DNA of 64,000 nucleotides. Source: Pseudomonadota bacterium (GTDB taxonomy: Bacteria; Pseudomonadota; Gammaproteobacteria; Ga0077536). The DNA is taken from the NCBI GenBank assembly GCA_036158955.1, contig JAYYFI010000018.1, forward strand, positions 35,868 to 99,867, in the 5' to 3' direction. The stretch's first letter is position 1. The number at the start of each line of letters is the position of its first letter. Positions 11,953 to 42,894 of this stretch are shown here, piece by piece. The notes under the pieces were generated by a model that saw nothing but the letters and a program-made list of their open reading frames with translations, had not been told where the DNA came from and made no database searches. Both the position numbers and the translations under genes were made by a program.

Positions 11953-12043
11953 AAAACACGTCCGAGTTCAATTTTATTGAATGGACATATAAGCAAACAT
12001 AATTATAAAATTCAACTATGAATAAAAAATAAGAGTAATTTCT

Positions 12044-13210
12044 ATGTCCACAAATAAAAAAACACAAACCGGACCTCTAAATGGCGTTAAAGTCATTGAA
12101 ATGGCTGGGATCGGGCCAAACCCTATGTGCGCCATGTTGTTGGCCGATATGGGAGCAGAAGTGATAAGAATTGATAGAACAGTTGATGGTGGTTTGGGCA
12201 TAGCTCTGGACCGAAAATATAGAGTTTTAGACAGGAGCAGGTCTTCAGTTGCTGTTGATTTGAAAAAGCCCGAGGGGGTTGAAACAGTGCTTAAATTGAT
12301 TGCGCATGCAGATGCATTAATTGAAGGTTTTAGACCGGGCGTAATGGAAAGATTGGGTTTAGGGCCTGACAAATGCATGGAAGTTAATCCAAAACTTGTT
12401 TTTGGTAGAGTGACCGGCTGGGGACAATATGGTGCGTTAGCAAAATCTGCTGGTCATGATATAAATTATATATCGCTTGTCGGAGCATGTCATAGTATTG
12501 GACATGACGGTGAGCCACCAGTACCGCCTTTAAACTTAATAGGTGATTTTGGTGGTGGAGGCATGCTGCTTGCGGTTGGGGTCTTAGCGGCTATATTAGA
12601 ATCGAAAACCTCTGGTCAGGGGCAAGTCGTAGATGCTGCCATGACCGATGGAACTGCCACTTTAATGGCTGCACTGTATGGGCTACATGCTGCAGGTATC
12701 TGGAGTGATTCGCGGCAAAACAATATCTTGGATGGAGGCGCTCATTTTTACAATACTTATGAGACTAAAGATAAAAAGTATATTTCGATAGCGTCAATTG
12801 AGCACAAATTTTACGAAATTTTAAAAGAGTTAATTGGTTTTGAAGATCATAGAAATTCGGCTCATAAAAACAAAGAATCGTGGCCAGACAGTAAAAAGCA
12901 ATTAACAGAAATCTTCAGACAAAAAACTAGAGATGAATGGTGTAAATTGTTAGAAGGTACAGACGTTTGCTATGCTCCCGTGTTGAATCTGCGAGAAGCT
13001 CCAGAACACCCACATAATAAAGATAGGCAGACTTTCACTGAAGTTGAAGGAGTTATTCAACCATCTCCTTCTCCAAGATTCAGTAGGACACCCTCTACAA
13101 TTCAAAGTCCACCTTCAGAAAACGGGGAGAATACTGATCAAGTTTTGAAAGCATGGGGCTTTACTAATGACGATATTTCAAAATTAAAAGATAAAGGAGC
13201 AATCAGCTAA
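12044..13210 (+). CDS. CaiB/BaiF family-III CoA-transferase (alpha-methylacyl-CoA racemase-like)
   Basis: N-terminal LNGVKVIEMAGIGPNPMCAMLLADMGAEVIRIDR plus a conserved Asp-containing core. It is paralogous to 24881-26089. Confidence 0.85.
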   Translation: MSTNKKTQTGPLNGVKVIEMAGIGPNPMCAMLLADMGAEVIRIDRTVDGGLGIALDRKYRVLDRSRSSVAVDLKKPEGVETVLKLIAHADALIEGFRPGVMERLGLGPDKCMEVNPKLVFGRVTGWGQYGALAKSAGHDINYISLVGACHSIGHDGEPPVPPLNLIGDFGGGGMLLAVGVLAAILESKTSGQGQVVDAAMTDGTATLMAALYGLHAAGIWSDSRQNNILDGGAHFYNTYETKDKKYISIASIEHKFYEILKELIGFEDHRNSAHKNKESWPDSKKQLTEIFRQKTRDEWCKLLEGTDVCYAPVLNLREAPEHPHNKDRQTFTEVEGVIQPSPSPRFSRTPSTIQSPPSENGENTDQVLKAWGFTNDDISKLKDKGAIS

Positions 13211-18292: not shown

Positions 18293-18985
18293 TTATATCC
18301 CCAACATAGGTTGAATTAATCTGAGGAAAGGGTTGTCAAACTTAAGATTTCCTTCTGTTGCAACCAAAGAAATACAATCGACTTCCCCCACAATGATAGG
18401 TTGGTGAGTATTTTCATCATCACATTCATGCAAATCTCCGGGTTGGTAAATGTTTGATGAACACGCATACGCGCCCTTAAGCACTAATGTTAACTCTTGC
18501 CCCCTGTGGCTGTGTTTGGGTAGTTTTGCGCCAGGCTTCCCCTTGATCATCCAAAGTCGTGAGTTACCGTCTTCTCTGAGCTTGCAAAGTTGTATATCTT
18601 TTCCCGCCGACTTCCACGGTAAGGCGTCGAAACTACAATCAAGGTAGCTCGGAAATAAACAATCAAGGCTATCGTCCAATTCAAAGTCATCCGCTTTGGA
18701 TTTTGACAAGTTCAGGGATTTTGCGCTATTTCGGTCACAAGATGAATCATAGCCTTCCACTATTTCATCGACTTTCGAATCGATATCTTCTGAAAAAGAT
18801 CCAAGATGATCGTGAAATTCATTCATTAAGAGGTCTGAGCCTATCGTTTCAATTTCTCTAATCTTTGTTCTGCAGTGCCGACACGCACTTATGTGAGCTC
18901 TCAGCACTATTTCAGAAGTAGAGAAGCCATTTCCAAAGCTGAAATCGGCTAAAGTGGCTGAACTTGGGCAATGATTTAGGTCCAC
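18293..18985 (-). CDS. chrR: anti-sigma factor ChrR (zinc-binding anti-sigma domain plus cupin)
   Basis: N-terminal zinc anti-sigma motif H-x3-C-x2-C (AHISACRHCRT) and a C-terminal cupin fold with conserved His. Its start overlaps the stop of the ECF sigma gene by 10 nt. Confidence 0.85.
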   Translation of the reverse strand: MDLNHCPSSATLADFSFGNGFSTSEIVLRAHISACRHCRTKIREIETIGSDLLMNEFHDHLGSFSEDIDSKVDEIVEGYDSSCDRNSAKSLNLSKSKADDFELDDSLDCLFPSYLDCSFDALPWKSAGKDIQLCKLREDGNSRLWMIKGKPGAKLPKHSHRGQELTLVLKGAYACSSNIYQPGDLHECDDENTHQPIIVGEVDCISLVATEGNLKFDNPFLRLIQPMLGI

Positions 18986-19569
18986 TGGTTTTCCCCTATA
19001 TTGCGTCTCAACCTTTGAAAAGCTAATCGGGTTCTTGATTTTACTGTGCCTATAGGAAGCCCCAAAGTCTCAGAAACTTCCCTATGAGACATTCCCATGC
19101 TGTAAAGCATATATAAAATCTGTTTCTGTTCTTTTGGTAGGGTTGAAATTATGTCGTTTACTGGGCGAGTGGTCGAAATTACGTCGGTGGCATCTACAAA
19201 CTCGTCAATATTATTTAGTAATTCATATTTTTGAAGACCGGTCTTTTTTCTGGTAGTTGACCGGTATTCGTCAATCATTTTGTTTCTAATCAGAGTATAA
19301 ATCCATGTTCTGGCAGCGGCTTTATTTTCGTCGAACAAATAAGGCTTGGTCCAAACAATTATCATTACTTCCTGTAAAACGTTTTCTGCGAGCGACCGTT
19401 CCATACCTTGTGCACACAACCAGGCGGTTAATTTGGGAGCCATTAATTTGTAAAGCTCTCTGTAAGCGCTTTTGTCAGCATTATCTCTTACTGACTTAAG
19501 TAATTTGGTCTCACGACTTCTTTCTAATTCGTTAGAGTCTGGTTCTTTTTTCGCCAATTTTATAGACAT
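18976..19569 (-). CDS. rpoE: RNA polymerase ECF sigma factor (RpoE/sigma-E of the ChrR-regulated, ECF11-like group)
   Basis: Sigma-70 regions 2 and 4 (…VMIIVWTKPYLFD…, …LPIGTVKSRTRLAFQRLR). It is co-transcribed with a ChrR-type anti-sigma. Confidence 0.85.
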   Translation of the reverse strand: MSIKLAKKEPDSNELERSRETKLLKSVRDNADKSAYRELYKLMAPKLTAWLCAQGMERSLAENVLQEVMIIVWTKPYLFDENKAAARTWIYTLIRNKMIDEYRSTTRKKTGLQKYELLNNIDEFVDATDVISTTRPVNDIISTLPKEQKQILYMLYSMGMSHREVSETLGLPIGTVKSRTRLAFQRLRRNIGENQWT

Positions 19570-19597
19570 TTGTAAACCTTTATTAATTTCAAAGGTT

Positions 19598-19623
19598 TAC
19601 GCTATGTTCTCCCTGTCGGATCA
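19598..19623 (-). promoter_or_regulatory. putative sigma-E(ChrR-type)-dependent autoregulatory promoter: TGATCC-N16-CGTA
   Basis: The minus strand reads TGATCC-gacagggagaacatag-CGTAAAC, ending about 28 nt upstream of the rpoE ATG. It matches what I recall as the ECF11/RpoE-ChrR target promoter consensus (-35 TGATCC, -10 CGTA, 16-17 nt spacer). Confidence 0.4.
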
Positions 19624-19731
19624 TTTATCCTATTTTTAAGGTTTAATTTTTGCTTATTGGGTAAGAATAGCTACGTTTTTTTTAAAACTCAATTATCTCG
19701 AGATTCATAGATGTAACCTTATACTGTAGAA

Positions 19732-21072
19732 TTGACTAAAATTCTTAGTTTTCTTTTTAGTGAGTTTGGTTTCGTGGTTTATAAAATAGCAGTTATTGGT
19801 TCTGGTATCTCGGGTCTGAGTGCAAGCTGGGCGTTAGCCAAGCACCATAACGTGACATTGTTTGAAAAAAACTCCCGACTTGGTGGTCACGCTAACACAG
19901 TTACAATAGATATTGATGGTGGTTTACCAGTAGACACAGGTTTCATTGTTTATAATCAACAAAATTATCCATTTTTAACCGATTTTTTTGATTTTCTGAA
20001 TGTGAATACACAAAAAAGTAATATGTCTTTTTCGGTGTCGCTCGACGATCGTGACTTTGAATATTCCTCCAATTTACTAGAGTTAGTTTTTGATAGGAAA
20101 AAATGGTTTAGTCGTCGATACAGGAATCTATTTTTTGGTCTGGTGAAGTTTTATACCTCCAGTTTACATTCTGCTGACTACGATGATTCGACAAGCTTGT
20201 ATGAATATTTAAAAACAAGGCAATTTAATGACCAATTCATTTGGGATCATATTGTTCCAATGTGCTCCGCTATTTGGTCGTGTGATTTTAATTCTGTGAA
20301 AAACAGTCCCGCTGCCTCCTTTGTGTCTTTTTTTTCAAACCATCAATTAGCTAAACTATTCGGCAGGCCAAGATGGCGTACAGTGTCTGGTGGGAGTCAG
20401 GAATATATAGCCAAAATTTTAGAAGACTCTGATAACTTAGTTGTAAAAACCAGTATGAATCTAGAAACCGTTCAGAGAGGCAAAGAGGGTATTACTTTGT
20501 GTTTCAGAAATGGAGAAAAAAAGAGTTTTGATAAGTTAATTTTTGCTACTCATTTTGATGAGGCTTTGAATTTACTTCAAAATCCTACGCTTGAAGAACA
20601 AGAAATTCTTTCGGGCATCAATTACTCTAGAAATCTTGCGGTCTTGCATGAAGATGACAGAGAAATGCCGATGAGGAAAAGCACTTGGTCTGCGTGGAAT
20701 TTTATCGGGTCTGGTAACGATTCTTTTGAAAAAGTAAGGGTGAGTTATTGGATGAATAAGTTACAAAATCTTCCAACAAAACGGCAACTCTTTGTAACTC
20801 TTAATCCCCAATCCGAGTTAAACGAGATCCATTATCAAACTCATTACACGCATCCAATTTTTGATGTAAACGCGAATGAGATAAAAATTAGATCTATAGA
20901 GATTCAAGGAAAAAATAATACGTGGTTTTGTAGCGCCTGTCTCGGCGATGGATTTCATGAGGATGGTCTTCAGGCAGGGTTGTGGGTGGCAAAACAAATT
21001 ATAAACAAGCTTCCGTTAACGAGAAACAAAAAATTTAATCGGTTGCCTAAATCGTATCAAAAGAGTTATTAA
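19732..21072 (+). CDS. FAD-dependent oxidoreductase (amine-oxidase-like; RSP1090-type member of the singlet-oxygen regulon)
   Basis: KIAVIGSGISGLS dinucleotide-binding motif and the amine-oxidase flavoprotein family. The likely true start is the in-frame GTG at 19774 (VYKIAVIG...). Confidence 0.8.
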   Translation: MTKILSFLFSEFGFVVYKIAVIGSGISGLSASWALAKHHNVTLFEKNSRLGGHANTVTIDIDGGLPVDTGFIVYNQQNYPFLTDFFDFLNVNTQKSNMSFSVSLDDRDFEYSSNLLELVFDRKKWFSRRYRNLFFGLVKFYTSSLHSADYDDSTSLYEYLKTRQFNDQFIWDHIVPMCSAIWSCDFNSVKNSPAASFVSFFSNHQLAKLFGRPRWRTVSGGSQEYIAKILEDSDNLVVKTSMNLETVQRGKEGITLCFRNGEKKSFDKLIFATHFDEALNLLQNPTLEEQEILSGINYSRNLAVLHEDDREMPMRKSTWSAWNFIGSGNDSFEKVRVSYWMNKLQNLPTKRQLFVTLNPQSELNEIHYQTHYTHPIFDVNANEIKIRSIEIQGKNNTWFCSACLGDGFHEDGLQAGLWVAKQIINKLPLTRNKKFNRLPKSYQKSY

Positions 21073-21848
21073 TGGAAATATCTGCCATATACAATGGGAC
21101 AGTGATGCACGAACGTCATGAAGAAAAGCACCATAGGTTCAAATATCCTTTAACCTACTTTTCACTCGCTTTAAAAGAGCTTCCAAATTTAAGTAAAGTT
21201 TCCCCCTTTTTCGCATGGAACAAATCTGCTTGGTTTAGCTTTCATGATTGCGATCATGGATTAGGAGACAGCTATAGGCTCGAAAATTTTTTTCAAATGT
21301 GCCTAAGTCGGGCCGGCTTTGAAATTGATGGATTTGAATTTGTGATAATGGGACTCCCAAGAGTTTTAGGCTACACATTCAGTCCAATTTCTTTTATCTA
21401 CTGTTACAAAAATGGACGAATAGAATCTATGATTTATGAGGTTAATAATACTTTCAACGAACGAATATTTTATGTCCTTCCTGTTTTGGAACAACCAATT
21501 CGACAAACTTGCAATAAAAAAATGACAGTTTCACCATTTTTCGACGTATCAGGGTTTTATAAATTCCGAATTTCCTCGTTAGGTGAGAAGATTTCAAATG
21601 CGATTGAATATTCCGATGGGCAAAATTTAAAAATGAGAGCCTTATTTAGGGGGGAAAGACGTCCATTTAATTCAAGACAAATTCTAAAAATGCTGGTAAG
21701 TTATCCTTTCCAGTCATATAAGATAATAGCATCAATTCATTTTGAGGCTTTGTTACTTTGGTTAAAAGGATTGCCTGTTATTAAAAGACAATCTATGGGC
21801 TCTGTTGGAATCGTAGTTAATGAACAACTAGAAATAATTAAACGATAA
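21072..21848 (+). CDS. DUF1365-family protein (conserved partner of cyclopropane-fatty-acid-synthase-like genes)
   Basis: 258 aa. Its start overlaps the upstream stop (ATG/TAA overlap). DUF1365 is the conserved partner of the amine oxidase and CFA synthase in sigma-E/ChrR regulons. Confidence 0.75.
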   Translation: MEISAIYNGTVMHERHEEKHHRFKYPLTYFSLALKELPNLSKVSPFFAWNKSAWFSFHDCDHGLGDSYRLENFFQMCLSRAGFEIDGFEFVIMGLPRVLGYTFSPISFIYCYKNGRIESMIYEVNNTFNERIFYVLPVLEQPIRQTCNKKMTVSPFFDVSGFYKFRISSLGEKISNAIEYSDGQNLKMRALFRGERRPFNSRQILKMLVSYPFQSYKIIASIHFEALLLWLKGLPVIKRQSMGSVGIVVNEQLEIIKR

Positions 21849-23035
21849 TGTTAGCAGAAAAATTAACAATCTTTCTATTAAAAAAATTTTTCGCAAAACT
21901 CGAGAATGGTGAATTAATTGTTGAATTGCCTTCTGGGCAAAAGGTATTGCTAGCTAGCAAAAATGCAACTACAACGCGCGTCTCAATTAGGTTAAATAGT
22001 TACAAACTGGTTCCCTTACTACTTTTTAAAGGTGGCCTAGGGGCAGGTGAGTCTTATATAAAAGGCTATTGGTGTACACCCGATTTAAAAAAAATCCTAG
22101 AATTTGCTGCAACCAACCGAAGTCCTCTTTCAAAGGAGTTTAGAGGATACAATACAGCAAAATTTTTCGATAAGGCTTTGCACTTTTTTAGGCAGAATTC
22201 CATTAACAAGGCAAAAAAAAACATCGCCGCACACTACGATTTAGGGAATAATTTCTATGGCCAATGGTTAGATGAGTCGATGACTTATTCCTCAGCTATT
22301 TTTGATGATTTTTCAGATAACTTGCAGCAAGCTCAGAATAATAAGTATGCGAGATTGTGCGATTTAGTGGAGTTAGCATCGGATGATAGTGTGTTGGAAA
22401 TTGGGTGTGGATGGGGTGGTCTTATCAATTATATAAAAAGAAGGTATTCTTGCGATACCAAGGCGATCACTATTTCAGAAGAACAATATAAATTTGTTAC
22501 CAAAAAAAATACTGCTCTGGGTAGCAATGATAAAAGTGTGGTGAGCCTTTGCGATTATCGTGATTTGCGGGGTGAGTTTGATAAAATTCTATCGATTGAA
22601 ATGATCGAGGCTGTGGGCGCTAAATATTGGCCAGTTTTTTTCGGCAAACTGAAAAGTTCACTTAAAGATGGTGGGGTTATAGGGCTGCAGGCAATTACCA
22701 TCGCGGAAGATTATTATGAGGATTATGAAAAGAATACTGATTTTATTCAACGCTATATATTCCCAGGGGGGATGCTTCCGACTTTACAAATTATTAAGCT
22801 ACTGAGTAAGGGGGCTGGCTTACAAGTGGTTACAGGTTGTGATTATGCTCAGCACTACGCTGCCACTTTAGAGCATTGGAGAGATAGATTCCATAAAGCT
22901 TGGCCTAGACTGAAGAAGCAGGGGTTCGATGACCGGTTTCGAAGGACATGGGATTATTACCTAGCTTACTGTCAAGCGGGCTTTTCTCAGGGTATGCTTA
23001 ACGTATGGCAACTAAGGCTTGAGCATGATGCTTAG
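21848..23035 (+). CDS. cyclopropane-fatty-acyl-phospholipid synthase-like SAM-dependent methyltransferase
   Basis: SAM-binding motif VLEIGCGWGG and the CMAS-family core. Its start overlaps the previous stop. Confidence 0.85.
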   Translation: MLAEKLTIFLLKKFFAKLENGELIVELPSGQKVLLASKNATTTRVSIRLNSYKLVPLLLFKGGLGAGESYIKGYWCTPDLKKILEFAATNRSPLSKEFRGYNTAKFFDKALHFFRQNSINKAKKNIAAHYDLGNNFYGQWLDESMTYSSAIFDDFSDNLQQAQNNKYARLCDLVELASDDSVLEIGCGWGGLINYIKRRYSCDTKAITISEEQYKFVTKKNTALGSNDKSVVSLCDYRDLRGEFDKILSIEMIEAVGAKYWPVFFGKLKSSLKDGGVIGLQAITIAEDYYEDYEKNTDFIQRYIFPGGMLPTLQIIKLLSKGAGLQVVTGCDYAQHYAATLEHWRDRFHKAWPRLKKQGFDDRFRRTWDYYLAYCQAGFSQGMLNVWQLRLEHDA

Positions 23036-29911: not shown

Positions 29912-31411
29912 GTGCCAGTAGACAAAATCGATGATGACCAACTTAAGGCAGTTTCAAAATCTTTGAACATGAATTTATCCGAGGGACAGATTTCTGATTA
30001 TAAAGAACTGGTGAATGGAACCCTCCAGGCTTACGACCTAGTAGATGAGTTAGAAAACTTTCTACCGTCGTCAAAGTATCCTCGAAACAAAGGGCGTCCG
30101 CCGTCAGAGCACGAAAATCCTAACAATGCCTGGTATTGGTTAACCGATATTAAGGGCTCGAAAGAAGGGGTTTTAAAAGGAAAGTCGGTAGCTTTTAAAG
30201 ATAATATCATGGTCCAGGATGTGCCTATGATGAATGGTTCTTCAACACTAGAGGGTTTCGTGCCTGAAGTTGATGCAACTGTTGTAAAAAATGTTTTAGA
30301 TGCAGGGGGTGTTATAAAAGGCAAGGCTAGTTGCGAATATTTTTGCACTTCTGGAGGAAGTCATACCAATGCCAAAGGTCCGGTTCATAACCCAATAAAG
30401 AGGGGATACTCGTCCGGTGGCTCATCGAGTGGTTGTGGTTCTCTTATCGCGTCAGGTGATGTTGACTTAGCAGTAGGTACTGATCACGGGGGGTCATGCA
30501 GGATCCCTGCCTCTTTTTGTGGAATAGTAGGCATGAAAGCGACATACGGTCTTGTTTCCTGTGATGGTATCATGCCAATCGAGGCTACGGTTGACTATGT
30601 GGGACCGATGAGTAAAACAGTTGAGGACTGTGCTCTATTACTGGAGGTTTTGGTTCGAGAAGATCAAGATTCAGGAAGTATTCCTAGGGCATTTAAAGGA
30701 GATGGGTATTTGTCCCAACTTAAAAATGGATGTGATAATTTGAAGATCGGGATCTTAAAGGAAGGGTTTAATTGCGAAAATTCTGAGCCAGAAGTTGACA
30801 AAGCTGTGCTTGAGGCCGCCAATCAGTTCAAGAAGATGGGCGCTATTGTTGAGTCTATTTCTATTCCCAATCATAGGTTTGCTACAGCTATTTGGACACC
30901 GATATATCTTGAGGGATTGGTTTGTTCATCAATGCAAGGGAATGGATATGGTAAAAATGCTGAAGGATATTTCTCTCCTTCGTTGATACAAGCTCACAAA
31001 GATTGGCGTAATCTTACTGATAGATTTGGCCCGCAAACCGAGTTAATAATGTTAGTCGGAGAGTATATTACTCAAAAATATAATTCTTATTTTTACGCTA
31101 AATCTCAGAATTTGCGCCGACTTTTAAGGAGAGATTATGAGATAAAATTCAAAGATTATGATCTGATCTTGATGCCAACTTTGCCGATGGTTGCAACAAA
31201 GCTTCCAAAAAAAGATGCAAAGGCGTCAGAAATAGTATCAAAATCGTTAGAAATGGCGATTAATACGCCGGCAGCAGACTTAACGGGGCATCCTTCAATT
31301 TCAATTCCCTGCGGCTATTCGAATGGATTGCCAGTGGGTTTAATGTTGACGGGTAGATTTTTTGAAGAGGGCAAGTTATTGGCAGCTGCTTATGCGTTTG
31401 AAAATAAGTAA
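29912..31411 (+). CDS. amidase (amidase-signature family, GatA-like)
   Basis: AS-family signature GGSSSGCGSLIASGDVDLAVGTDHGGSCRIPASFCG with the Ser-cisSer-Lys catalytic triad context. Confidence 0.85.
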   Translation: MPVDKIDDDQLKAVSKSLNMNLSEGQISDYKELVNGTLQAYDLVDELENFLPSSKYPRNKGRPPSEHENPNNAWYWLTDIKGSKEGVLKGKSVAFKDNIMVQDVPMMNGSSTLEGFVPEVDATVVKNVLDAGGVIKGKASCEYFCTSGGSHTNAKGPVHNPIKRGYSSGGSSSGCGSLIASGDVDLAVGTDHGGSCRIPASFCGIVGMKATYGLVSCDGIMPIEATVDYVGPMSKTVEDCALLLEVLVREDQDSGSIPRAFKGDGYLSQLKNGCDNLKIGILKEGFNCENSEPEVDKAVLEAANQFKKMGAIVESISIPNHRFATAIWTPIYLEGLVCSSMQGNGYGKNAEGYFSPSLIQAHKDWRNLTDRFGPQTELIMLVGEYITQKYNSYFYAKSQNLRRLLRRDYEIKFKDYDLILMPTLPMVATKLPKKDAKASEIVSKSLEMAINTPAADLTGHPSISIPCGYSNGLPVGLMLTGRFFEEGKLLAAAYAFENK

Positions 31412-31429
31412 ATCATAGGGGGTAATTTT

Positions 31430-32203
31430 ATGGTACTAGCTCACGAACTTTTCGGTTCTGGAAATGAGGGCGTGATTGTTATGCATGATTTTTATGGATG
31501 TAAAGATACTTGGTCTTTTACGAGAAATTTTTTCAACACTAAGGATTTTACTTTCGCGTTTACTGAAGTCAGAGGCTATGGTCAATCAAGACACATTCCA
31601 GGAGAATATTCCCCAGCAGAAGCATCTGCTGACATTTTAAATTTAGCCGATAATTTGGGGTGGGCTAACTTCCATGTAATGGGTCATTCAATGAGTGGAA
31701 TGCTCGCCCAAAGGGTGATGTTGGATGGAAAAGACAGAGTTCTATCTGCCATTTTAAATACTCCTGTGGCAGCCTCTGGCCTGAGTTTTTCTCCTGAAGG
31801 TTTTGCTTTGATCGAAGAATCGATTACTTGTAACGAAGCGCTTGCAAGAGCATTCAACGCATTAGCAGGCGAAAGGCTAGGAAAAGAGTGGGCAGAATTT
31901 AAAATGCGGCAAACCAGAACTAATCGGCTTAAAAAAGCCCAATCCGAATATTTTAAAAATTGTAGAGATCAGGGATTTTTAAGCGAAATAAATGGGATAA
32001 AAACGCCAACTCTAGTAGTGATAGGTGAACACGATATGGAACCTTTTACTCTATCAACCGCCCGCGAGACCTTTGGTAAATGGTATCCAAACTCCGAGAT
32101 CGTAGTTTGTAATAATGCTGCGCATTATCCCCAGCAGGAGACCCCAGTCTATTTTGCTAAACTGGTTAATGAATTTTTAATTAAACAACTATTAAAAAGT
32201 TAA
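31430..32203 (+). CDS. alpha/beta-fold hydrolase
   Basis: GHSMSG nucleophile elbow and an HGxxG-like oxyanion region near the N-terminus. 257 aa. Confidence 0.8.
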   Translation: MVLAHELFGSGNEGVIVMHDFYGCKDTWSFTRNFFNTKDFTFAFTEVRGYGQSRHIPGEYSPAEASADILNLADNLGWANFHVMGHSMSGMLAQRVMLDGKDRVLSAILNTPVAASGLSFSPEGFALIEESITCNEALARAFNALAGERLGKEWAEFKMRQTRTNRLKKAQSEYFKNCRDQGFLSEINGIKTPTLVVIGEHDMEPFTLSTARETFGKWYPNSEIVVCNNAAHYPQQETPVYFAKLVNEFLIKQLLKS

Positions 32204-32855: not shown

Positions 32856-33152
32856 TTAAGTAATTTTTTCTTTAATTCTCCGCTTTTTGTATAAGAAGTA
32901 TTCTCTCCTGATGTCTTGGTAAGAATTTGCTAAAATTTCGCAAGTTGCTCCATTATCGATAAAAAATCTAGTTAATCTCTTTAAAAGTTTGTCTGTTGTT
33001 TCAGTAGCTAAATCCTCTTTGACGGCTTTTGTTATATCAATCAAATACAACTGATAGTACCATTCCAACGAATTTAACCCGGCTGGTATTTTGTCGATTG
33101 ATTTGCTTGTTTTTTTTAAAATATCTAAAAAATTGCGTTTTGAGTCGTCCAT
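32856..33152 (-). CDS. hypothetical protein
   Basis: A 98-aa ORF directly upstream of, and co-directional with, the SDR gene. No recognisable domain. Confidence 0.3.
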   Translation of the reverse strand: MDDSKRNFLDILKKTSKSIDKIPAGLNSLEWYYQLYLIDITKAVKEDLATETTDKLLKRLTRFFIDNGATCEILANSYQDIRREYFLYKKRRIKEKIT

Positions 33153-33212: not shown

Positions 33213-33638
33213 ATGGAAAATCATATGAAATCATTACTTGTCAAAATAATGCCAAAAATCACCTTCTTTAATATTCTGTTACTGATCGGAATTATGTCCG
33301 CTTCTCCGGTATTTTCTCATGGGGTCACGCTAGCGGACTATGAAGGGCCTGTTGTGGTAAATGTCTTGTTTCCAATTGGGGATGGAGGAAAAGATTATTC
33401 TGCTTTTGTGAAAGTTTTGGAAAAGTCAGTTCCTAAATATGATGGTTTAGACGGTTTAATTCGTAAATATTATCTTGTGACTGGAGACAATACAAAAGCA
33501 GGTGGTGTTTATTTTTGGGAATCTATTGATAAAGCTAATGCTTGGTTCACGCCAGAATGGTTTGACTATATCAAAACAAAATTTGGCGAGTCTCCAAGCG
33601 TTGAATATTTTAAGGCACCAGTAATAGTAAATAACTAA
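33213..33638 (+). CDS. YdhR-like putative monooxygenase (dimeric alpha+beta barrel) with N-terminal signal/TM segment
   Basis: The C-terminal part (…TKAGGVYFWESIDKANAWF…) resembles the E. coli YdhR family. It is preceded by a hydrophobic N-terminus (ITFFNILLLIGIMSASPVFS). Confidence 0.5.
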   Translation: MENHMKSLLVKIMPKITFFNILLLIGIMSASPVFSHGVTLADYEGPVVVNVLFPIGDGGKDYSAFVKVLEKSVPKYDGLDGLIRKYYLVTGDNTKAGGVYFWESIDKANAWFTPEWFDYIKTKFGESPSVEYFKAPVIVNN

Positions 33639-33639
33639 T

Positions 33640-33668
33640 ATTGACTAATTGGATTAGCTGGTTTTAAT
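33640..33668 (+). promoter_or_regulatory. putative sigma-70 promoter for the AOR gene (TTGACT-N17-TTAATT)
   Basis: -35 TTGACT (33640-33645), 17-nt spacer, -10 TTAATT (33663-33668). This lies about 35 nt upstream of the ATG at 33703. Confidence 0.3.
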
Positions 33669-33702
33669 TAGTCCTGATAGGCCAAATTAATTGGAGTAAA
33701 AA

Positions 33703-35424
33703 ATGCGTGAATATTTAAAAATCAATTTAAATGATAAAAAAATTGAGCGGGAGACTTTCGCGGGAGAAAGGTTAGCAAGAGCAGGTCGTTACTTTATCGC
33801 CGAACAATTAGTTGCGGCCGGTGCGGCTAAAGCGGACCCACTCGGACCAGATAATCCATTAATATTTTCTGCTGGCCCATTTGCTGGGAGTAATTTTTCG
33901 AATGCTAATAGAACAAGTGTTGGATGTAAAAGCCCACTGACTGGTGGAATAAAAGAGTCTAACGCTGGTGGTTCCTTTGGTCTTGCTTTAGGCCAACTGA
34001 GTATAGCTGGTTTCACATTAAACGGCTCTTCTGAGGAATGGACCGTTATTCACATCAAGAAAGATAGTAAAGTAGAATGGCACGGAGCTGAAGATTTGAT
34101 GGGAAAAGGAAATTTTGAGGCCGCAAAACTATTACATGAAAAATTCGGGGATAAGGTCAGTTTGGCTATCTGTGGCCCCGTAGGAGAATATGGGGGTCTG
34201 CTTGCTGGTATTGCGATGAGTGACACTGACAAAAGACCGACAAGATTAGCTGCAAGAGGTGGCGTTGGGGCAGTTATGGGCTCAAAGAGAGTAAAAGCGA
34301 TCGTTGTTGATTTGGATCGAATGCCAGAATTCAGTGATAGAAAAGGCTTATTAAAGGGTATCAAAGACTACGGAAAATTATTACAGGCAGATGAAGCTAT
34401 TACGGCGCTTAAAGATTATGGCACAGCGATGATGGCTGATTATACTAATTATGTGGGTGGTTTGCCGGTAAATAATTTTAGCTCTGGTCACCAGAAGCCT
34501 GATGACGAGGATAACTTCAAGATGGGTGGGCAATTTATTCGTAATCAAAACTTACAACGCGGTGGTGAGACTAGTCATGCGTGTATGCCTGGTTGTAGGA
34601 TTGAATGTAGCAATGTCTATGCTGACGAAGATGGTAATGAGATTGCTTCCCCCGTTGAATATGAAACGTTAGGGCTGATGGGTACAAATTGTGGTATATC
34701 AGATCCAGACGAACTTGCCAGATTAAATTGGTTTGCTAATGACCTTGGAATAGACACCATTGAAGCTGGAGCAATGATGGGTGTTCTATTAGATGCAGGC
34801 CTTGCCGAGTTTGGCGATGTGAAGTTCTTGACTCAGGTCCTCCAAGAAATTCGAGAGGGAACTGAAAGTGGAAAACTTTGGGCACAGGGTACCGGAATTG
34901 TTGGCAAACACTATAAAATAAATAGGGTGCCTGTTATAAAAAATCAGGGTATCAGTGCTTATGACCCAAGAGTGATAGAGGTAACGGGTATATCAATGAT
35001 GTTGACGGCTCAAGGAGCTGATCACACCACCGGCAATGTCGCCAAATACGAATCGATTGATAAAGACGTTGATGAATTGGTTTCAACTAGCCTTGAGACG
35101 CAGGTTGTATGCGCGACTGCAGATTCACTAGGGCTCTGTGTGTTTGGGCGCTCGGTCACTAATACCAATGTTGAAATGATAGTCGACCTAATTAACAAAG
35201 CCACAGGTTCTGAGCTTGAATCTAATTTCTTTTTTAAGCTTGGTCAAGAAACACTTAGACTCGAGGCGCAGTTCAATAAAGAGGCTGGTTTTCAGGTAGA
35301 AGACGATGATCTTCCGCAGTTTTTCTACGATGAGCCTCTCGCTCCATCTGAACAAGTTGCGCGATTCAAAGCGCAAGAGGTAAATGATGCTGCTAGTAAA
35401 TGGTGGAAATCACAAGGGTATTAA
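33703..35424 (+). CDS. aldehyde:ferredoxin oxidoreductase (AOR) family tungsten/molybdenum pterin enzyme
   Basis: AFOR N-terminal domain (MREYLKINLNDKKIERE...SAGPFAG...GCKSPLTGG) and a C-terminal domain with the 4Fe-4S Cys cluster (ACMPGCRIEC). 573 aa. Confidence 0.8.
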   Translation: MREYLKINLNDKKIERETFAGERLARAGRYFIAEQLVAAGAAKADPLGPDNPLIFSAGPFAGSNFSNANRTSVGCKSPLTGGIKESNAGGSFGLALGQLSIAGFTLNGSSEEWTVIHIKKDSKVEWHGAEDLMGKGNFEAAKLLHEKFGDKVSLAICGPVGEYGGLLAGIAMSDTDKRPTRLAARGGVGAVMGSKRVKAIVVDLDRMPEFSDRKGLLKGIKDYGKLLQADEAITALKDYGTAMMADYTNYVGGLPVNNFSSGHQKPDDEDNFKMGGQFIRNQNLQRGGETSHACMPGCRIECSNVYADEDGNEIASPVEYETLGLMGTNCGISDPDELARLNWFANDLGIDTIEAGAMMGVLLDAGLAEFGDVKFLTQVLQEIREGTESGKLWAQGTGIVGKHYKINRVPVIKNQGISAYDPRVIEVTGISMMLTAQGADHTTGNVAKYESIDKDVDELVSTSLETQVVCATADSLGLCVFGRSVTNTNVEMIVDLINKATGSELESNFFFKLGQETLRLEAQFNKEAGFQVEDDDLPQFFYDEPLAPSEQVARFKAQEVNDAASKWWKSQGY

Positions 35425-35980
35425 TTCTTTAAGATATCGCCAGCTAGTTCTATTTTTTTCCTTCAGCTGCCTCTGCTCCGTATATGGCCAGTCTCTTCCT
35501 GAAATAGAAACTGTTGAGAATCTAAATATCGGAAAGTATCTAGGAGTTTGGCATCAGATAGCGTTAATCCCTAACTATTTCCAGAAAGATTGCGTTGATG
35601 ACACTCAGGCTGAATATGAGGTTTTGTCGGACGACTCAATTACTATCCTTAACTCTTGTCTATCACTCGGTGGAGAGAGACTATTAGCTGCCGGGATAGG
35701 AAGAGCTACAGGGGAACCCCGTAACTTTGCGAGGCTCAAAGTATCTTTTGCGCCAAAATGGTTAGCTTGGATTCCTTTTGTCTGGGGTGATTATTGGATT
35801 TTATCAATAGACGACGAATATAATTCAGTTCTTATTGGTTCCCCTGATCGAAGATATCTATGGATATTATCAAGGCAAAAATTTATTCAAAAAGAGATTT
35901 TTGCTGACTATTTAGAAAAGGCAAAAAAGAATGAATTCGACACGTCTTTGTTGATTTATAAATTATCTTCCCTCCGTTAG
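35384..35980 (+). CDS. blc: bacterial lipocalin (Blc-like), probable lipoprotein/secreted
   Basis: Lipocalin SCR1 motif GKYLGVWHQIA and overall Blc length. The start as listed overlaps the AOR 3' end by 41 nt, so the true start is uncertain. Confidence 0.7.
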   Translation: MMLLVNGGNHKGINSLRYRQLVLFFSFSCLCSVYGQSLPEIETVENLNIGKYLGVWHQIALIPNYFQKDCVDDTQAEYEVLSDDSITILNSCLSLGGERLLAAGIGRATGEPRNFARLKVSFAPKWLAWIPFVWGDYWILSIDDEYNSVLIGSPDRRYLWILSRQKFIQKEIFADYLEKAKKNEFDTSLLIYKLSSLR

Positions 35981-37276
35981 GGTTGAAACAGCAAACACTC
36001 TTTTTATTTCTTTTGGCTTCATCACAGGGTGAAGGGTAGGTGTCTTAGCACGTACAACAGTGGCGTTATTTGCTTTAAGGTCAACAGTTATTTGTCCTCT
36101 CCAACTAGGCACCGATTTTTCGATCTCCGTCGTAGACGAAGGGCTCGAAGTTACGGTTTGCATAACTTTCCAAAGCTTATCATCATGATCAAAAATGAGC
36201 GAAACTGGGATGTTAAATGTTTCTTTGTCGATGAATAAGATTCTTCTTTTATAAGGGTGGCCTGCCCAAACAGATTTTACCTCAGTAACGTAACAATCTC
36301 TCAGCTGGTATTTGTGTTGCAGGGCTCTGCTGTTTGGACCGTAGACATTAATCAATTCCTTCTCCATATTTGAGACTGCAAGTATCTTTCGAGAACCGAT
36401 AAAGCTCCAAGTGTAATCTAGTACTCTTCCAGAGAATCCCTCAAAGTCGTCTAAGGTTACATTTGATCCCATAAAACTATCCGCTCTCTCTTTTGCTGAA
36501 AACCGTCTTACCCGTCGCTCTGTTGGTAAATAGGTGTTTACTTGATCGTCTGCGTGAGGATCTAACATGCGCTCAACCACAAATTTTGTGCCTTTCACAT
36601 CTCTCGGTTCTAAAAACTCCATAAAATCTTTATAGAATCTTGTATTACTATCTTTTAGATTAACCTTGTAATTATTTTGAGGGAGCATTGCAAGCTTATT
36701 TAAGTAAACTCGATGGTAGGACTGACTTAGGAGTCGATCTAATTTTCCACCCCCTAATAGCCCTTCGTTTTCATTCAGCGGTCCATCGTTATTTGACCCA
36801 CTTACATAGGCCATGGTGATAATGTCAATTTGATAACCAAAATGTTGCCAGCGATGTATGTTGTTCCATCCAATCATAAATCCTCCGACGTCGTTCGTTG
36901 CATTTTTTATCTCTTTATCGGAGAAAGGTTGCCCCGCAGTATAATTAATAAGACTTCCGTCTGTATCAATACTTGCCGTGTAAGCCCATTTTTTGGTTGC
37001 CGAGATATAGGACGAGTGCGGCTTTTCTACTTTTGTTTCTTGGATAACTAGTTTTAGTTCTGGAAATTTGAATTCCTCTATCATTCCGGGAGGAATCCAC
37101 TTGTTTAAAACTTCCGTATCGCCATTTGTCAGTATAGTTCCAGCCGTTGGCGCATCAGATTTCGGTTCATTTTTAACCCAGCCGTAGATTTCTGTATAAT
37201 TGACAGAAGCACTTACTGAGTGGGTCAACATAGAAAAAACGACTATAAAAGGTAGGATGTAAGAGGATAATTTCAT
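35963..37276 (-). CDS. DUF1329-family protein (predicted outer-membrane-associated, LolA-like fold; hydrophobic-substrate uptake partner)
   Basis: 437 aa with a signal peptide. Conserved stretches (ERRVRRFSAKERADSFMGSNVTLDDF) are typical of DUF1329 proteins, which are usually paired with outer-membrane DUF1302 proteins. Confidence 0.55.
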   Translation of the reverse strand: MKLSSYILPFIVVFSMLTHSVSASVNYTEIYGWVKNEPKSDAPTAGTILTNGDTEVLNKWIPPGMIEEFKFPELKLVIQETKVEKPHSSYISATKKWAYTASIDTDGSLINYTAGQPFSDKEIKNATNDVGGFMIGWNNIHRWQHFGYQIDIITMAYVSGSNNDGPLNENEGLLGGGKLDRLLSQSYHRVYLNKLAMLPQNNYKVNLKDSNTRFYKDFMEFLEPRDVKGTKFVVERMLDPHADDQVNTYLPTERRVRRFSAKERADSFMGSNVTLDDFEGFSGRVLDYTWSFIGSRKILAVSNMEKELINVYGPNSRALQHKYQLRDCYVTEVKSVWAGHPYKRRILFIDKETFNIPVSLIFDHDDKLWKVMQTVTSSPSSTTEIEKSVPSWRGQITVDLKANNATVVRAKTPTLHPVMKPKEIKRVFAVSTLTEGR

Positions 37277-37347: not shown

Positions 37348-37950
37348 TTGAAAACTATGAGTGAAAAATCAAAAAATACAGATCCCACTTTTTATAATTC
37401 GCTTGATGAGTCTGAGAAAAATGCTTGGTGGTTATTTGAAGCTGGAATTAAAGACAGGAAATCTTACTTTCATACTCCTGTAGTTGTCTCAAAAACTGAA
37501 ACGGGCAATGTTAACCCGAGAACAATGGTTTTGCGAGCAGTGAATAAATCCGCATTAGAGTTACAATTTCATACTGATAAACGCAGTAATAAGATTAATG
37601 AATTTGCTGCGAATAAATCAGGAGCAGTCTTAGTCTATGATATGGTAACCAAAGTGCAAGTTAGAATCGATGCCGAATTCCGGATAATCGATGACCTTGT
37701 TATTCTTGAGGATCGTTGGTCTAAAATGAAAAGCATGAGTAAAGAATGTTACGCTGTTTCTAAACCTCCAGGAGCCGAGTTGAAAGATCCAATTAATGTA
37801 GACTTCGATGTTGATGGTGAATCTAACTTTATAATTCTATCAGCTAAGGTGTTACAGTTGGAGTGGCTCTATTTGTGCTATAAAGGAAACAGGAGAGCAC
37901 TTTTTGATTACCGTACTGAACAACCAGTAAAAAGTTGGCTAGTTCCTTGA
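37348..37950 (+). CDS. pyridoxamine 5'-phosphate oxidase-like FMN-binding protein
   Basis: Split-barrel PNPOx-like N-terminus (…RTMVLRAV…VLVYD…). 200 aa. Confidence 0.65.
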   Translation: MKTMSEKSKNTDPTFYNSLDESEKNAWWLFEAGIKDRKSYFHTPVVVSKTETGNVNPRTMVLRAVNKSALELQFHTDKRSNKINEFAANKSGAVLVYDMVTKVQVRIDAEFRIIDDLVILEDRWSKMKSMSKECYAVSKPPGAELKDPINVDFDVDGESNFIILSAKVLQLEWLYLCYKGNRRALFDYRTEQPVKSWLVP

Positions 37951-40014: not shown

Positions 40015-42894
40015 TCAGCTTTTACAATTTTCGATAATCTGTCTTAAATTTTTTGGGCTGAGATCACTAGATGTTATTTTAACGCCTATCGGTCTGAGCG
40101 CATCCTCAACGGCCCCCATTATGGCCGTACTGGTAGCTATACATCCATCTTCGCCCCCTCCTTTTGCTCCCACCTCCGTTGACGGTGATTTGGTTTCAAG
40201 ATGATGTATTTCGATTTCAGGGGTTGACCAAATGTTTGGAATTCCATATTCCTTGAGAGTTTTTTGTAACGGCCTGCCTTCTGAATCATAATCAAGTTTT
40301 TCGTAAAGGGTGCCACCAAGTTGTTGCATGATACCTCCAGTGATTTGTCCTTTTAGTAAAAGTGGGTTCAGAATTTTCCCATGATCTGCCACTATCCAAA
40401 TTTTTAATACCTCAACTTTTCCTGTACTTGGTTCAACCTCTACTAATGCTCCTTCCGCGCCATTTGAATGAGCAGGGTAAAACTGAGCTCTTCCGAGCTC
40501 ATCTGCTTTCCAATTTACCTGAGGATGTCTGTAGGTTCCCATTGCTTCAAGGGATGGCTCATCAGCTTGATCTAGGATAATTTCTGCCCCTGGATTGACA
40601 TAGACCGCGTATGCTAATTCTTTAAAAGTGATGGACTGATTTGTGATTTTATTTATAATTTTCCCATTGTCAAATAAAAGGGCTCCTTCGTCGCATTCCA
40701 AAAGAATAGCTGAGGCTATTTCTATTCGTTTTTTTATTTTTTTTGCAGCTTTTATTATAGCACCTACGGCAAACATTGCTCCTCGCGATGAAAAGGTTCC
40801 TGAACCCCAGGGTGTAACATTGGTATCGCCCCAACTAACTCCCACGTCTTCGACGCTGCATCCTAAGTATTCGGCTGTTACTTGGGCATAGACCGTCTCT
40901 ATCCCTTGTCCAATGCTTTGAATACCTGTCTGTACTCGTACGGAACCATCAGCGGCTAAACGAACGTTAACCGATTCATAATTTTGAAAAGCGGAGCTTG
41001 GGAAGGTTGCTCCAGCCGGTTCAATATAGGGAATAAGACTGATACCTAAAAATCGATTATTCGCTAACGCTTGTGATTGTTTTTCTCGGAGTGTCGATAT
41101 ATCCATAATTTTTTCAAGTTTTTCTAAGCATTCTCGTTGAGTTCCATTTTCTAGGATTGGCCCTGTTACTATTTGGTGTGGGTAAGACTTAAGAAGATTT
41201 TTCTTTCTAATTAAGATTTGATCCATTTCGAGTCTATCTGCGGCTAAATCTAATGTTCTTTCTATCAGCATATTAGCTAGGTCCTTGCCAAATCCGCGAT
41301 AAGCATTATAGGGCGCTTTATTGGTTACAACGCATCTTACCCTTGTTTTATAGTTTTCACATACGTAAGGTCCTAATGCAAAAGTACCGCCGTTCAAAGG
41401 CATTCCTAATCCGCAAGCTCTCTCTGCTCCATCGCATCCCATGTCAGCAATTATATCGGTTTCTAGAGCTTTCAATTGTCCGCTTTTGTCAAAAGCACCT
41501 TTAACTTTTGCGGTATAGTCTCGCGCTCCAAATCCTGCTTGAATCCATTCTGATCTTGACTCATGCCATCTGACGGGTTTATCCAGAATAATGCTTCCAA
41601 GTATGGGCAAGTATTCCGTGTCCATAGAAAGTTTGCTTCCAAATCCACCACCAACATCCCCAGCTATTATTTGTATTGAGTTCTCTCTAAGGCCAAAAAC
41701 TCTCGACAGGTAAATCCTGAATTGATGCGGTACTTGCGTTGATGCGTGGATAACCAGACTTTTTTCAAAGCTATCATATTCAGCTCTTACAGCTCTTGTT
41801 TCCATTGGCATAGCGCCAAATCGGTGAGAATCTATTGTTTCCTCTACAATCAGGTCGGCAGAGCTGAAAATGTTTTCAAGTTTGCCGTTTTCGAAGTTAA
41901 AATCTACTTGTACGTTATTGTCCCATGTGTCATAAAGTATTCCGTCTTCTTTTGCTTTAAGTGAATCACACGCTTTCGTATTGACAGGCAGATCCAAATA
42001 TTTAATTTTTACTTTTTCACCTGCAAGGTGAGCTGCGTCTAAACTCTTCGCTATGATTAAAACAACAGGCTCTCCAATAAAAACCACCTTATCGGTGGCT
42101 AATGGATACCTTTTTGGAAGTTTTAGGTCGAGTAAGTCCATGGTAGGTGAGATGGGTTCCCAGTAGTCCTGAGCTTCTCGCCCGGTTAATATTAACTCAA
42201 TATCTGGTTGCTGTTTCGCCTCTTGTGTATCTATTTCAACAATGGTGGCGTGAGCCCTATCCGAACGAAGAATATATGCAAAAAGATCATCATTTTTGAA
42301 AAAATTGTCGGTAAATTTTCCCCGCCCACTCATCAGTCGGCCATCTTCAATTCTAGTTACAGCTTCCCCTATTTTACCTTTTATGTTGGTTTCTTGATTT
42401 TCGAGTTCAACCAATGATTTAGCTTTGCCTGCCGCATGCATAACCGCGTGAATAATATTTTTGTAGCCAGTACATCTACAAATATTTCCAACTAAACCGT
42501 CTTTAATCGAGGGCTCTGTAACTTTATCTCCGTGTTTTTTTAACACATTACGAGCGCTCATAATCATCCCAGCAGTACAGTAACCACATTGAAGGGCATG
42601 ACAATTTGTGAATGAAGATTTTAGCTTTGATGTAAGAGGATCAGATTCAAGCCCTGCAATGGTTGTAATTTCTGATTGACTACATGTGTTAGTGAGTTTC
42701 AGACACGATTTTGTCAACAAACCATCTATCTCAACCGTGCAAGCACCACATGCACCTTCTTCGCAACCTATTCGTACACTTTTATCGCCTAGCTCTTTCA
42801 AAGTGTCGCATAAGTAAGCTCCCGCTGGAAAAGTTTTTTCTATTTTTTTACCATTTAAGGTGAACGAAATAGTTTCTTCTGTTTTGTTTTTCAA
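40015..42894 (-). CDS. xanthine-dehydrogenase/aldehyde-oxidase-family molybdenum hydroxylase with N-terminal fused 2x[2Fe-2S] domains (MOP/CoxS-CoxL fusion)
   Basis: N-terminal plant-type and four-helix 2Fe-2S cysteine clusters (C-x4-C-x2-C…C; CGYCTAGM…CRCTGY), followed by a large MoCo-binding aldehyde-oxidase/xanthine-dehydrogenase domain. 959 aa. Confidence 0.85.
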   Translation of the reverse strand: MKNKTEETISFTLNGKKIEKTFPAGAYLCDTLKELGDKSVRIGCEEGACGACTVEIDGLLTKSCLKLTNTCSQSEITTIAGLESDPLTSKLKSSFTNCHALQCGYCTAGMIMSARNVLKKHGDKVTEPSIKDGLVGNICRCTGYKNIIHAVMHAAGKAKSLVELENQETNIKGKIGEAVTRIEDGRLMSGRGKFTDNFFKNDDLFAYILRSDRAHATIVEIDTQEAKQQPDIELILTGREAQDYWEPISPTMDLLDLKLPKRYPLATDKVVFIGEPVVLIIAKSLDAAHLAGEKVKIKYLDLPVNTKACDSLKAKEDGILYDTWDNNVQVDFNFENGKLENIFSSADLIVEETIDSHRFGAMPMETRAVRAEYDSFEKSLVIHASTQVPHQFRIYLSRVFGLRENSIQIIAGDVGGGFGSKLSMDTEYLPILGSIILDKPVRWHESRSEWIQAGFGARDYTAKVKGAFDKSGQLKALETDIIADMGCDGAERACGLGMPLNGGTFALGPYVCENYKTRVRCVVTNKAPYNAYRGFGKDLANMLIERTLDLAADRLEMDQILIRKKNLLKSYPHQIVTGPILENGTQRECLEKLEKIMDISTLREKQSQALANNRFLGISLIPYIEPAGATFPSSAFQNYESVNVRLAADGSVRVQTGIQSIGQGIETVYAQVTAEYLGCSVEDVGVSWGDTNVTPWGSGTFSSRGAMFAVGAIIKAAKKIKKRIEIASAILLECDEGALLFDNGKIINKITNQSITFKELAYAVYVNPGAEIILDQADEPSLEAMGTYRHPQVNWKADELGRAQFYPAHSNGAEGALVEVEPSTGKVEVLKIWIVADHGKILNPLLLKGQITGGIMQQLGGTLYEKLDYDSEGRPLQKTLKEYGIPNIWSTPEIEIHHLETKSPSTEVGAKGGGEDGCIATSTAIMGAVEDALRPIGVKITSSDLSPKNLRQIIENCKS

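Follow-up and report, generated by a model that had tools for sequence, protein, structure and literature searches.

A putative stand-alone aldehyde oxidoreductase of a gammaproteobacterium belongs to a deep-branching clade with a re-spaced [4Fe-4S] motif and lies in a lineage-specific gene block

Introduction

In the published scheme of the AOR/WOR family, which includes the aldehyde:ferredoxin oxidoreductases (AORs), a Class I WOR consists of WorL alone, without genes for the WorS polyferredoxin or other subunits adjacent to it (PMC13328260). The enzymes of Pyrococcus furiosus (PfAOR, 1aor) and Clostridium autoethanogenum (9g7j), both from anaerobes, represent AOR sensu stricto (WOR clade 87) within this class, and the characterised aerobic enzymes BmWOR and Haloferax WOR83 (9q1t) represent clade 83. 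In this study, we analysed a 64,000-nucleotide stretch of DNA from a gammaproteobacterium of the lineage Ga0077536 (GenBank assembly GCA_036158955.1, contig JAYYFI010000018.1, positions 35,868 to 99,867), hereafter called the window, in which a gene encoding a 573-residue AOR-family protein follows a small gene encoding a YdhR-like protein.

The initial annotation of this locus regarded AORs as typical of anaerobes and archaea, a view which is outdated in the light of three reports. BmWOR comes from an obligate aerobe and is an air-active, single-subunit WOR using ferredoxin (PMC9424855). Aerobic/denitrifying bacteria contain enzymes of the AorABC type (PMC6365974), and the aerobic marine Cycloclasticus is proposed to have an 'aor' (PMC12510462). 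The Aromatoleum AorABC enzyme (8c0z), which belongs to Class III and is reported to be relatively oxygen-tolerant, is not a single-subunit enzyme, as AorB requires the polyferredoxin AorA and the FAD subunit AorC and uses NAD+. A more distant member of the superfamily, Escherichia coli YdhV (Class V, clade 41), is encoded within a few kb of ydhR, as the window AOR is of a YdhR-like gene; the initial annotation mentioned this parallel and proposed that the two window genes may form an aldehyde-detoxifying unit.

Results

The features of the AOR gene discussed first are as follows.

33703 to 35424, forward strand: stand-alone (Class I-type) AOR/WOR-family aldehyde oxidoreductase, 573 residues, predicted cytoplasmic
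34582 to 34608, forward strand: clade-specific [4Fe-4S] motif C294-MPG-C298-RIE-C302 (C-x3-C-x3-C), invariant in 120 of 120 clade members
35137 to 35139, forward strand: fourth cluster ligand, C479, invariant in the clade

The 573-residue protein contains both domains of the family, AFOR_N (IPR013983, 180 bits) and AFOR_C (IPR001203, 190 bits), each scoring far above its cut-off, and its alignment with P. furiosus AOR covers the whole sequence (E-value 9e-51, or 4e-65 with the clade profile). The AlphaFold2 (AF2) model, with a pTM of 0.88, superposes on nine solved AOR-family chains with TMq values of 0.80-0.88, the values for solved AORs being 0.85-0.88, and predicts a complete three-domain AOR fold. 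The N-terminus is hydrophilic and carries neither a signal sequence nor a Tat motif. The assignment as a two-domain AFOR protein with cluster cysteines was therefore correct, with four invariant Cys but with a spacing of the first three that differs from the canonical one, and public records already label the window protein an aldehyde ferredoxin oxidoreductase.

The second-shell residues of aldehyde-oxidising WORs are Thr243, Glu313, Tyr427, and His448 in PfAOR numbering (PMC13328260). Their counterparts in the window protein, T241, E319, Y420, and H441, are invariant in all 120 clade members, and D351 and D474, the pterin-binding Asp residues, are likewise 100% conserved among them. Cofactor, cluster, and second-shell residues hold invariant across 58-99% sequence identity. 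The AOR gene has a dN/dS of 0.018 and the small gene upstream one of about 0.04, as estimated against two relatives with synonymous sites near saturation, and both genes are, given this purifying selection, to be taken as real and presumably functional.

All six reference enzymes (PfAOR, C. autoethanogenum AOR, Haloferax WOR83, WOR1 (9mqx), Aromatoleum AorB, and E. coli YdhV) have the cluster motif C-x2-C-x3-C. In the clade, whose motif takes the general form C-MPG-C-xIx-C, a profile alignment and a joint multiple sequence alignment (MSA) both place C294, C298, and C302 one to one with the canonical cysteines, with a one-residue insertion between the first two. Pairwise alignments had given the appearance of a ligand swap, with Ser displacing the first Cys of the cluster and another Cys assuming its role; we rejected this, as the profile alignment and the MSA show a simple insertion. 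Variation in cluster ligation has a precedent in the family, WOR5/ASOR using three Cys and one Asp (PMC12096430).

Orthologues of about 573 residues, 65-99% identical, fall into more than 120 clusters, and in named genome records they occur, down to 58% identity, in Gammaproteobacteria, Granulosicoccaceae, Chromatiales, Rhodospirillales, and Magnetovibrio. Chromosomes of 3.5-6.3 Mb carry some of them, and an identical copy of the window protein is encoded on a 1.89-Mb contig (L017; loci and proteins from other genomes are designated L and P, respectively). In a neighbour-joining (NJ) tree with the six reference sequences, the clade was monophyletic in 200 of 200 bootstraps. Identity between clade members and any characterised AOR-type enzyme is 28-30%, and with YdhV it falls to 18-20%; the characterised AOR-type enzymes share 39-57% among themselves. 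Since the recognised subfamilies FOR, WOR4, WOR5, XOR, and BamB are themselves 27-34% identical to AorB (PMC6365974, Table 5), the divergence of the clade is at the subfamily level. Haloferax WOR83 was sister to the clade in 165 of 200 bootstraps at 29.5% identity, a position that may reflect long-branch attraction in a six-reference tree. The clade is large, uncharacterised, and deep-branching, and is spread over aerobic, mostly marine Gamma- and Alphaproteobacteria.

With 1aor and 9g7j the window AOR shares both Pfam domains, the three-domain fold (TMq 0.88), the second-shell residues, the pterin-binding Asp, the four Cys, and a partner-less single-subunit gene; it differs from them in being only ~30% identical, in the one-residue insertion in the cluster motif, and in being ~30 residues shorter, and the clade hosts are aerobic mesophilic marine Proteobacteria rather than anaerobes. 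Single-subunit organisation, aerobic hosts, and the lack of an adjacent partner are likewise common to the clade and to BmWOR and WOR83, but WOR83, with its canonical motif, is no nearer in sequence than clade 87. The catalytic residues of the proteobacterial AorB are the same as those of the window AOR; identity is nevertheless 27.6%, and counterparts of AorA or AorC are not found near clade members.

The window AOR is not a YdhV-type (Class V, clade 41) enzyme. It scored 69 bits against the YdhV equivalog model, whose cut-off is 868, and BLASTP aligned it with YdhV over the N-domain only (27% identity; 18% overall). The metal-ligand Cys336 of YdhV aligns to a variable aliphatic position, I314, and the AOR-type EYE motif and His are retained. 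Genes for YdhY, YdhX, YdhW, YdhU, or YdhT partners are lacking, as is one for the membrane-associated Tat-WorS partner of Class V. The active-site residues are of the AOR type, and the intact cofactor residues speak against a cofactor-less homologue.

At 24 loci, the interval from -5 to +7 kb around the AOR contained no ORF (open reading frame) with a ferredoxin motif (C-x2-C-x2-C-x3-C), no WorS, and no credible ThiS-like ORF. Fer4 genes were absent from the Pfam-annotated AOR neighbourhoods, and 4Fe-4S ferredoxin-type ORFs from the whole window, in agreement with the earlier remark that neither a ferredoxin nor a YdhY/YdhX partner lies nearby. Since partner subunit genes are missing at all 24 loci, the enzyme falls into Class I by the published scheme, with ferredoxin as the presumed carrier. 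Mo/W transporter and cofactor-synthesis genes were also not found in the window. However, a Mo-hydroxylase is encoded at 40015 to 42894, and molybdopterin synthesis in the host is therefore implied, this cofactor being an established requirement of the Mo-hydroxylase family.

The aerobic catabolic setting described in the initial annotation was borne out by the enzymes of the window, which include two FMO/BVMO-like flavoproteins, two luciferase-like monooxygenases, an aldehyde dehydrogenase, the Mo-hydroxylase with an FAD subunit, and a PQQ-type GSDH. A P450, a PhyH protein, and a GMC oxidoreductase lie near the AOR at L029, and an RPE65-type oxygenase at L030. The AOR host bacteria clearly use O2. 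At L030 the oxygenase gene (11502 to 12908), of the RPE65 family of carotenoid/stilbene-cleaving oxygenases that produce aldehydes, is situated two genes past DUF1329, and at L029 (14208 to 15722) the P450 and the PhyH dioxygenase are close to the AOR; both loci offer possible hints at an aldehyde source. An amidase and alpha/beta-hydrolase pair upstream of the AOR in the window (29912 to 32203) recurs at L021 (4745 to 7802), on a 4.7-Mb chromosome, beside a 67%-identical AOR orthologue, where it is accompanied by a SnoaL-like gene; the genes of the conserved block described below are not common to L021 and the window.

Upstream and downstream of the AOR gene, the following features were assigned.

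33213 to 33638, forward strand: predicted exported YdhR-like, dimeric alpha+beta-barrel, ABM-like protein (ORF of 141 residues)
33213 to 33317, forward strand: predicted Sec-type signal peptide, residues 1-35, with a K-rich n-region, a hydrophobic core F18-A30, and cleavage at ...PVFS|HG
33639 to 33702, forward strand: spacer of 64 nt between the small gene and the AOR gene, with a Shine-Dalgarno sequence (GGAG) 8 nt before the AOR start and no terminator
35384 to 35980, forward strand: Blc-like lipocalin with a predicted exported or lipoprotein N-terminus (Lipocalin_2, 127 bits), overlapping the AOR 3' end by 41 nt (35384 to 35424)
35963 to 37276, reverse strand: DUF1329/LolA-like protein with a predicted signal peptide, block member
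37348 to 37950, forward strand: PNPOx-like (FMN-binding split-barrel) cytoplasmic protein, block member

The small gene probably starts at its second ATG, at 33225 (MKSLL...), since its close homologues are 137-138 residues long. The assignment to the YdhR family, made from the sequence of the window, is supported through intermediates and by the fold. The score of the small protein itself against Pfam ydhR (PF08803) is 20.4 bits, under the cut-off of 27.1, and that of its L030 homologue is 23.3 bits. An exhaustive search yielded 611 representatives of the small-protein family, of which 54 were sampled for PF08803 and 47 matched it, and hhalign paired the family profile with E. coli YdhR at 91% probability (E-value 9e-7). 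The AF2 model has a pLDDT above 93 over residues 46-141 and a low one over residues 1-45, and its top match in the PDB is 1wd6, E. coli YdhR (TMt 0.75; root-mean-square deviation 2.1 Å), followed by ABM proteins. With these barrels it shares the beta-alpha-beta-beta-alpha-beta fold and the core motif around GL-RK...AGGVY-W. It is, however, only 19% identical to E. coli YdhR, from which it also differs in its predicted signal peptide and in the invariant HG that opens the mature protein. The small protein thus is, as far as sequence and modelled fold can tell, an only remotely YdhR-like alpha+beta-barrel protein, and since E. coli YdhR has no demonstrated function, the fold match yields no mechanism for it.

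The N-terminal segment of the small protein, already suspected to be a signal, is signal-peptide-like both in hydropathy (maximum 2.59) and in its cleavage-type site. Small residues at -3/-1 and the conserved HG are found in the window, L001, L024, L028, and L030, and the HG (H36-G37, 33318 to 33323), right after the predicted cleavage site, is invariant even in homologues ~50% identical. H36 is the sole conserved His of the predicted mature protein. An N-terminal His of an exported protein can serve as a metal ligand, for example for Cu. A signal on a YdhR-like protein had been considered unusual for the family, but when family members were screened by a crude hydropathy rule, the N-terminus was signal-like in 13 of 36 mid-length and 28 of 51 tandem forms, as compared with 1 of 62 short forms, and predicted exported forms are common across the wider family. 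Divergent from the YdhR-like gene lies a conserved 98-residue ORF (32856 to 33152, reverse strand) with no Pfam, NCBIfam, or PADLOC match, which is present within the window's lineage (L001, L014, L017-L019, L025) and missing from L028 and L030.

In the spacer before the AOR gene, only the Shine-Dalgarno sequence is conserved. A conserved operator was rejected, as the 8-bp inverted repeat GACTAATT...AATTAGTC (33645 to 33680) is not conserved in the 91%- and 96%-identical relatives; the repeat and a TTGACT hexamer in the same interval are identical in L018. No Moco/Tuco riboswitch or other Rfam RNA element was found upstream of the AOR gene.

A tblastn search recovered the small gene from just two relatives, both fully syntenic, with 91% and 96% identity. 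The adjacency is nevertheless more than inherited synteny of near-identical genomes, an explanation we rejected because P0129, L028, and L030 keep the arrangement at 75-77% AOR identity with different flanks. P0129, which is 52% identical to the small protein and has its own signal peptide, is followed after 20 nt by an AOR that matches P0004 at 47 of 49 residues, and P0004 is 77% identical to the window AOR. At L028 (77%) and L030 (75%), the order YdhR-like, AOR, Lipocalin_2, DUF1329 (reverse strand), and PNPOx-like is the same as in the window, and the genes upstream are wholly different. In profile scans, the block was found at every locus with an AOR at least 75% identical to that of the window, except L029, where the AOR is followed by the lipocalin only. 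In contrast, none of the block genes was found at 16 loci with 58-73% AOR identity, and the YdhR-like/AOR adjacency is absent at 17 AOR loci with 58-75% identity. Conservation in related genomes, which the initial annotation had named as a check, is thus restricted to one lineage.

The most persistent neighbour of the AOR is the lipocalin, which is kept downstream in L001, L014, L018, L019, L028, L029, and L030, and lies directly 3' of the AOR even in L029, which has no YdhR-like gene. It scores below the cut-off of the Blc subfamily (86.6 vs 267), and in five lineages its N-terminus carries a lipobox or is signal-like. The overlap with the AOR gene is 31-41 nt in most lineages (window, L018, L019, L028, L029, L030), and because of this overlap and the lack of a terminator between the small gene and the AOR gene, co-transcription is likely. 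Export signals are predicted for the YdhR-like protein, the lipocalin, and the DUF1329 protein, and for neither the AOR nor the PNPOx-like protein. The YdhR-like/AOR association is thus real but restricted to one lineage; by prediction it extends over two compartments, and it does not characterise the AOR clade as a whole.

Discussion

We consider it most likely, with a probability of about 0.7, that the window gene encodes a functional cytoplasmic single-subunit AOR, which would carry a W- or Mo-bis-pyranopterin and a [4Fe-4S] cluster and oxidise aldehydes, with an electron carrier encoded elsewhere and a lineage-specific association with the block genes. At the pyranopterin site, aldehyde and H2O would be converted to acid and two electrons, which the [4Fe-4S] cluster may relay to a soluble, probably housekeeping ferredoxin whose gene lies elsewhere; PfAOR and BmWOR, the latter active in air, work in this manner (PMC9424855). 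Possible sources of the aldehydes are the monooxygenase, hydrolase, and alcohol-dehydrogenase reactions nearby. In the window's lineage, where the AOR gene stands in a probable operon between genes for a predicted exported YdhR-like protein and a Blc-like lipocalin, beside DUF1329 and PNPOx-like genes, the aldehydes could also stem from hydrophobic or lipid-derived compounds that the lipocalin and the LolA-like protein, both predicted to be exported, may handle. Some points weigh against this interpretation. The clade departs from the canonical C-x2-C-x3-C spacing of the first three cluster ligands; the AF2 model is weaker at the cofactor loops (pLDDT 50-70 at about residues 230-330 and below 50 at 438-443), as is expected of an apo model; and the link to envelope or lipid aldehydes, which follows from the identity of the neighbours, is tentative.

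The unusual spacing could also be read as a sign of a cofactor-less or catalytically inactive homologue kept for another role, in keeping with the lack of accessory genes near the AOR at the 24 loci. We regard this as very improbable, since the cluster Cys, the pterin-binding Asp, and the second-shell residues are invariant over 58-99% identity, dN/dS is 0.018, and a complete three-domain fold is predicted. Even less probable is that the enzyme runs in reverse in vivo, forming aldehydes from carboxylic acids with reduced ferredoxin: although AORs can reduce acids given very low-potential donors (PMC6365974, PMC9295118), a strongly reducing ferredoxin pool is, by our inference, not known in aerobic heterotrophs, and the neighbourhood is oxidative and catabolic. 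The choice of metal is less one-sided. Mo is present in seawater at roughly 100 nM and W at tens of pM, and an AOR using Mo rather than W, as a bis-Mo-MPT enzyme like YdhV, would suit a host in the open ocean, where Mo is far above W, that already has a Mo enzyme in its Mo-hydroxylase. The YdhV subclade of the AOR/WOR family indeed prefers Mo, but all characterised aldehyde-oxidising members are described as obligately W-dependent (PMC12096430), the active-site residues of the clade are AOR-type and not YdhV-type, and tupABC tungstate transporters are reported to be common in aerobic marine bacterioplankton (PMC8269220, PMC12262181). A Mo-dependent enzyme is thus unlikely, though it is the alternative that we take most seriously.

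The idea of a dedicated aldehyde-detoxifying unit with the YdhR-like protein and the AOR as its two components, akin to E. coli ydhR/ydhV, draws on the genes being adjacent and co-directional with no terminator between them, on the persistence of this adjacency in three sub-lineages although the small protein has diverged by ~50% and the genes upstream differ, and on the fact that, within the immediate subfamily of the small protein, each member whose context can be seen is followed by an AOR. The adjacency in one lineage is accordingly beyond chance, and this part of the proposal stands. As a general rule, however, it is largely refuted by the 17 loci of the AOR clade that lack the adjacency, and a signal peptide, conserved in the small protein and predicted to take it out of the cytoplasm, is lacking in the AOR, so that the two are unlikely to pair physically. 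The E. coli precedent offers little help: in strain K-12, ydhR (forward) is indeed 4.7 kb from ydhV (reverse), but five genes (ydhS, ydhT, ydhU, ydhX, ydhW) lie between them, and the two are on opposite strands in separate transcription units. The window AOR is not YdhV-type and the small protein is only remotely YdhR-like; with both so distant from the E. coli products, the parallel is coincidental. We therefore hold a dedicated two-component unit to be improbable, and favour an AOR acting as a single subunit.

The window AOR adds a member to a known family. The clade to which it belongs is uncharacterised, deep, and widespread, with a distinctive cluster motif, and in the window's lineage the gene stands in a probable operon. 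The significance of the enzyme is tempered by the existing AOR label in public databases and by a chemistry that is probably conventional. Nevertheless, pyranopterin-dependent aldehyde oxidation would reach into the carbon cycling of the oxic ocean through this clade, which is large, strongly conserved, and without partner genes and belongs to aerobic marine Proteobacteria. The clade also raises a trace-metal question, namely which metal the enzyme uses where Mo vastly exceeds W, and whether the enzyme accounts for the frequent occurrence of tupABC among aerobic bacterioplankton. The C-x3-C-x3-C motif, being clade-specific, is a clean mutagenesis target. On a more speculative note, the clade might be a distinct oxygen-compatible AOR subfamily, kept even in a genome of ~1.9 Mb, in which the re-spaced motif would be an adaptation of potential or O2 tolerance; it might serve as a sink for imported tungstate or represent the first Mo-using aldehyde-oxidising AOR, and in the window's lineage it might form an envelope-aldehyde module with the YdhR-like protein, the lipocalin, and DUF1329. 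Taken as a whole, this extended picture is doubtful.

Additional observations

Membership of the locus in a defence system was considered and rejected, as PADLOC gave zero matches. At L017, where the AOR sequence is identical to that of the window, the Mo-hydroxylase gene is in three pieces, the amidase, GlnD, and DUF1329 genes are split, and the lipocalin is uncalled, a pattern that suggests frameshift errors introduced in long-read assembly and not pseudogenes. Elsewhere in the window, an ECF sigma factor gene and a ChrR-type cupin anti-sigma gene (18293 to 19569, reverse strand) are divergent from genes for an amine-oxidase-like flavoprotein, a DUF1365 protein, and a cyclopropane-fatty-acid synthase (19732 to 23035, forward strand). 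The genes from 18293 to 23035 resemble the regulon of Rhodobacter in which sigmaE and ChrR respond to singlet-oxygen stress, and this would suit a light-exposed aerobic lifestyle.

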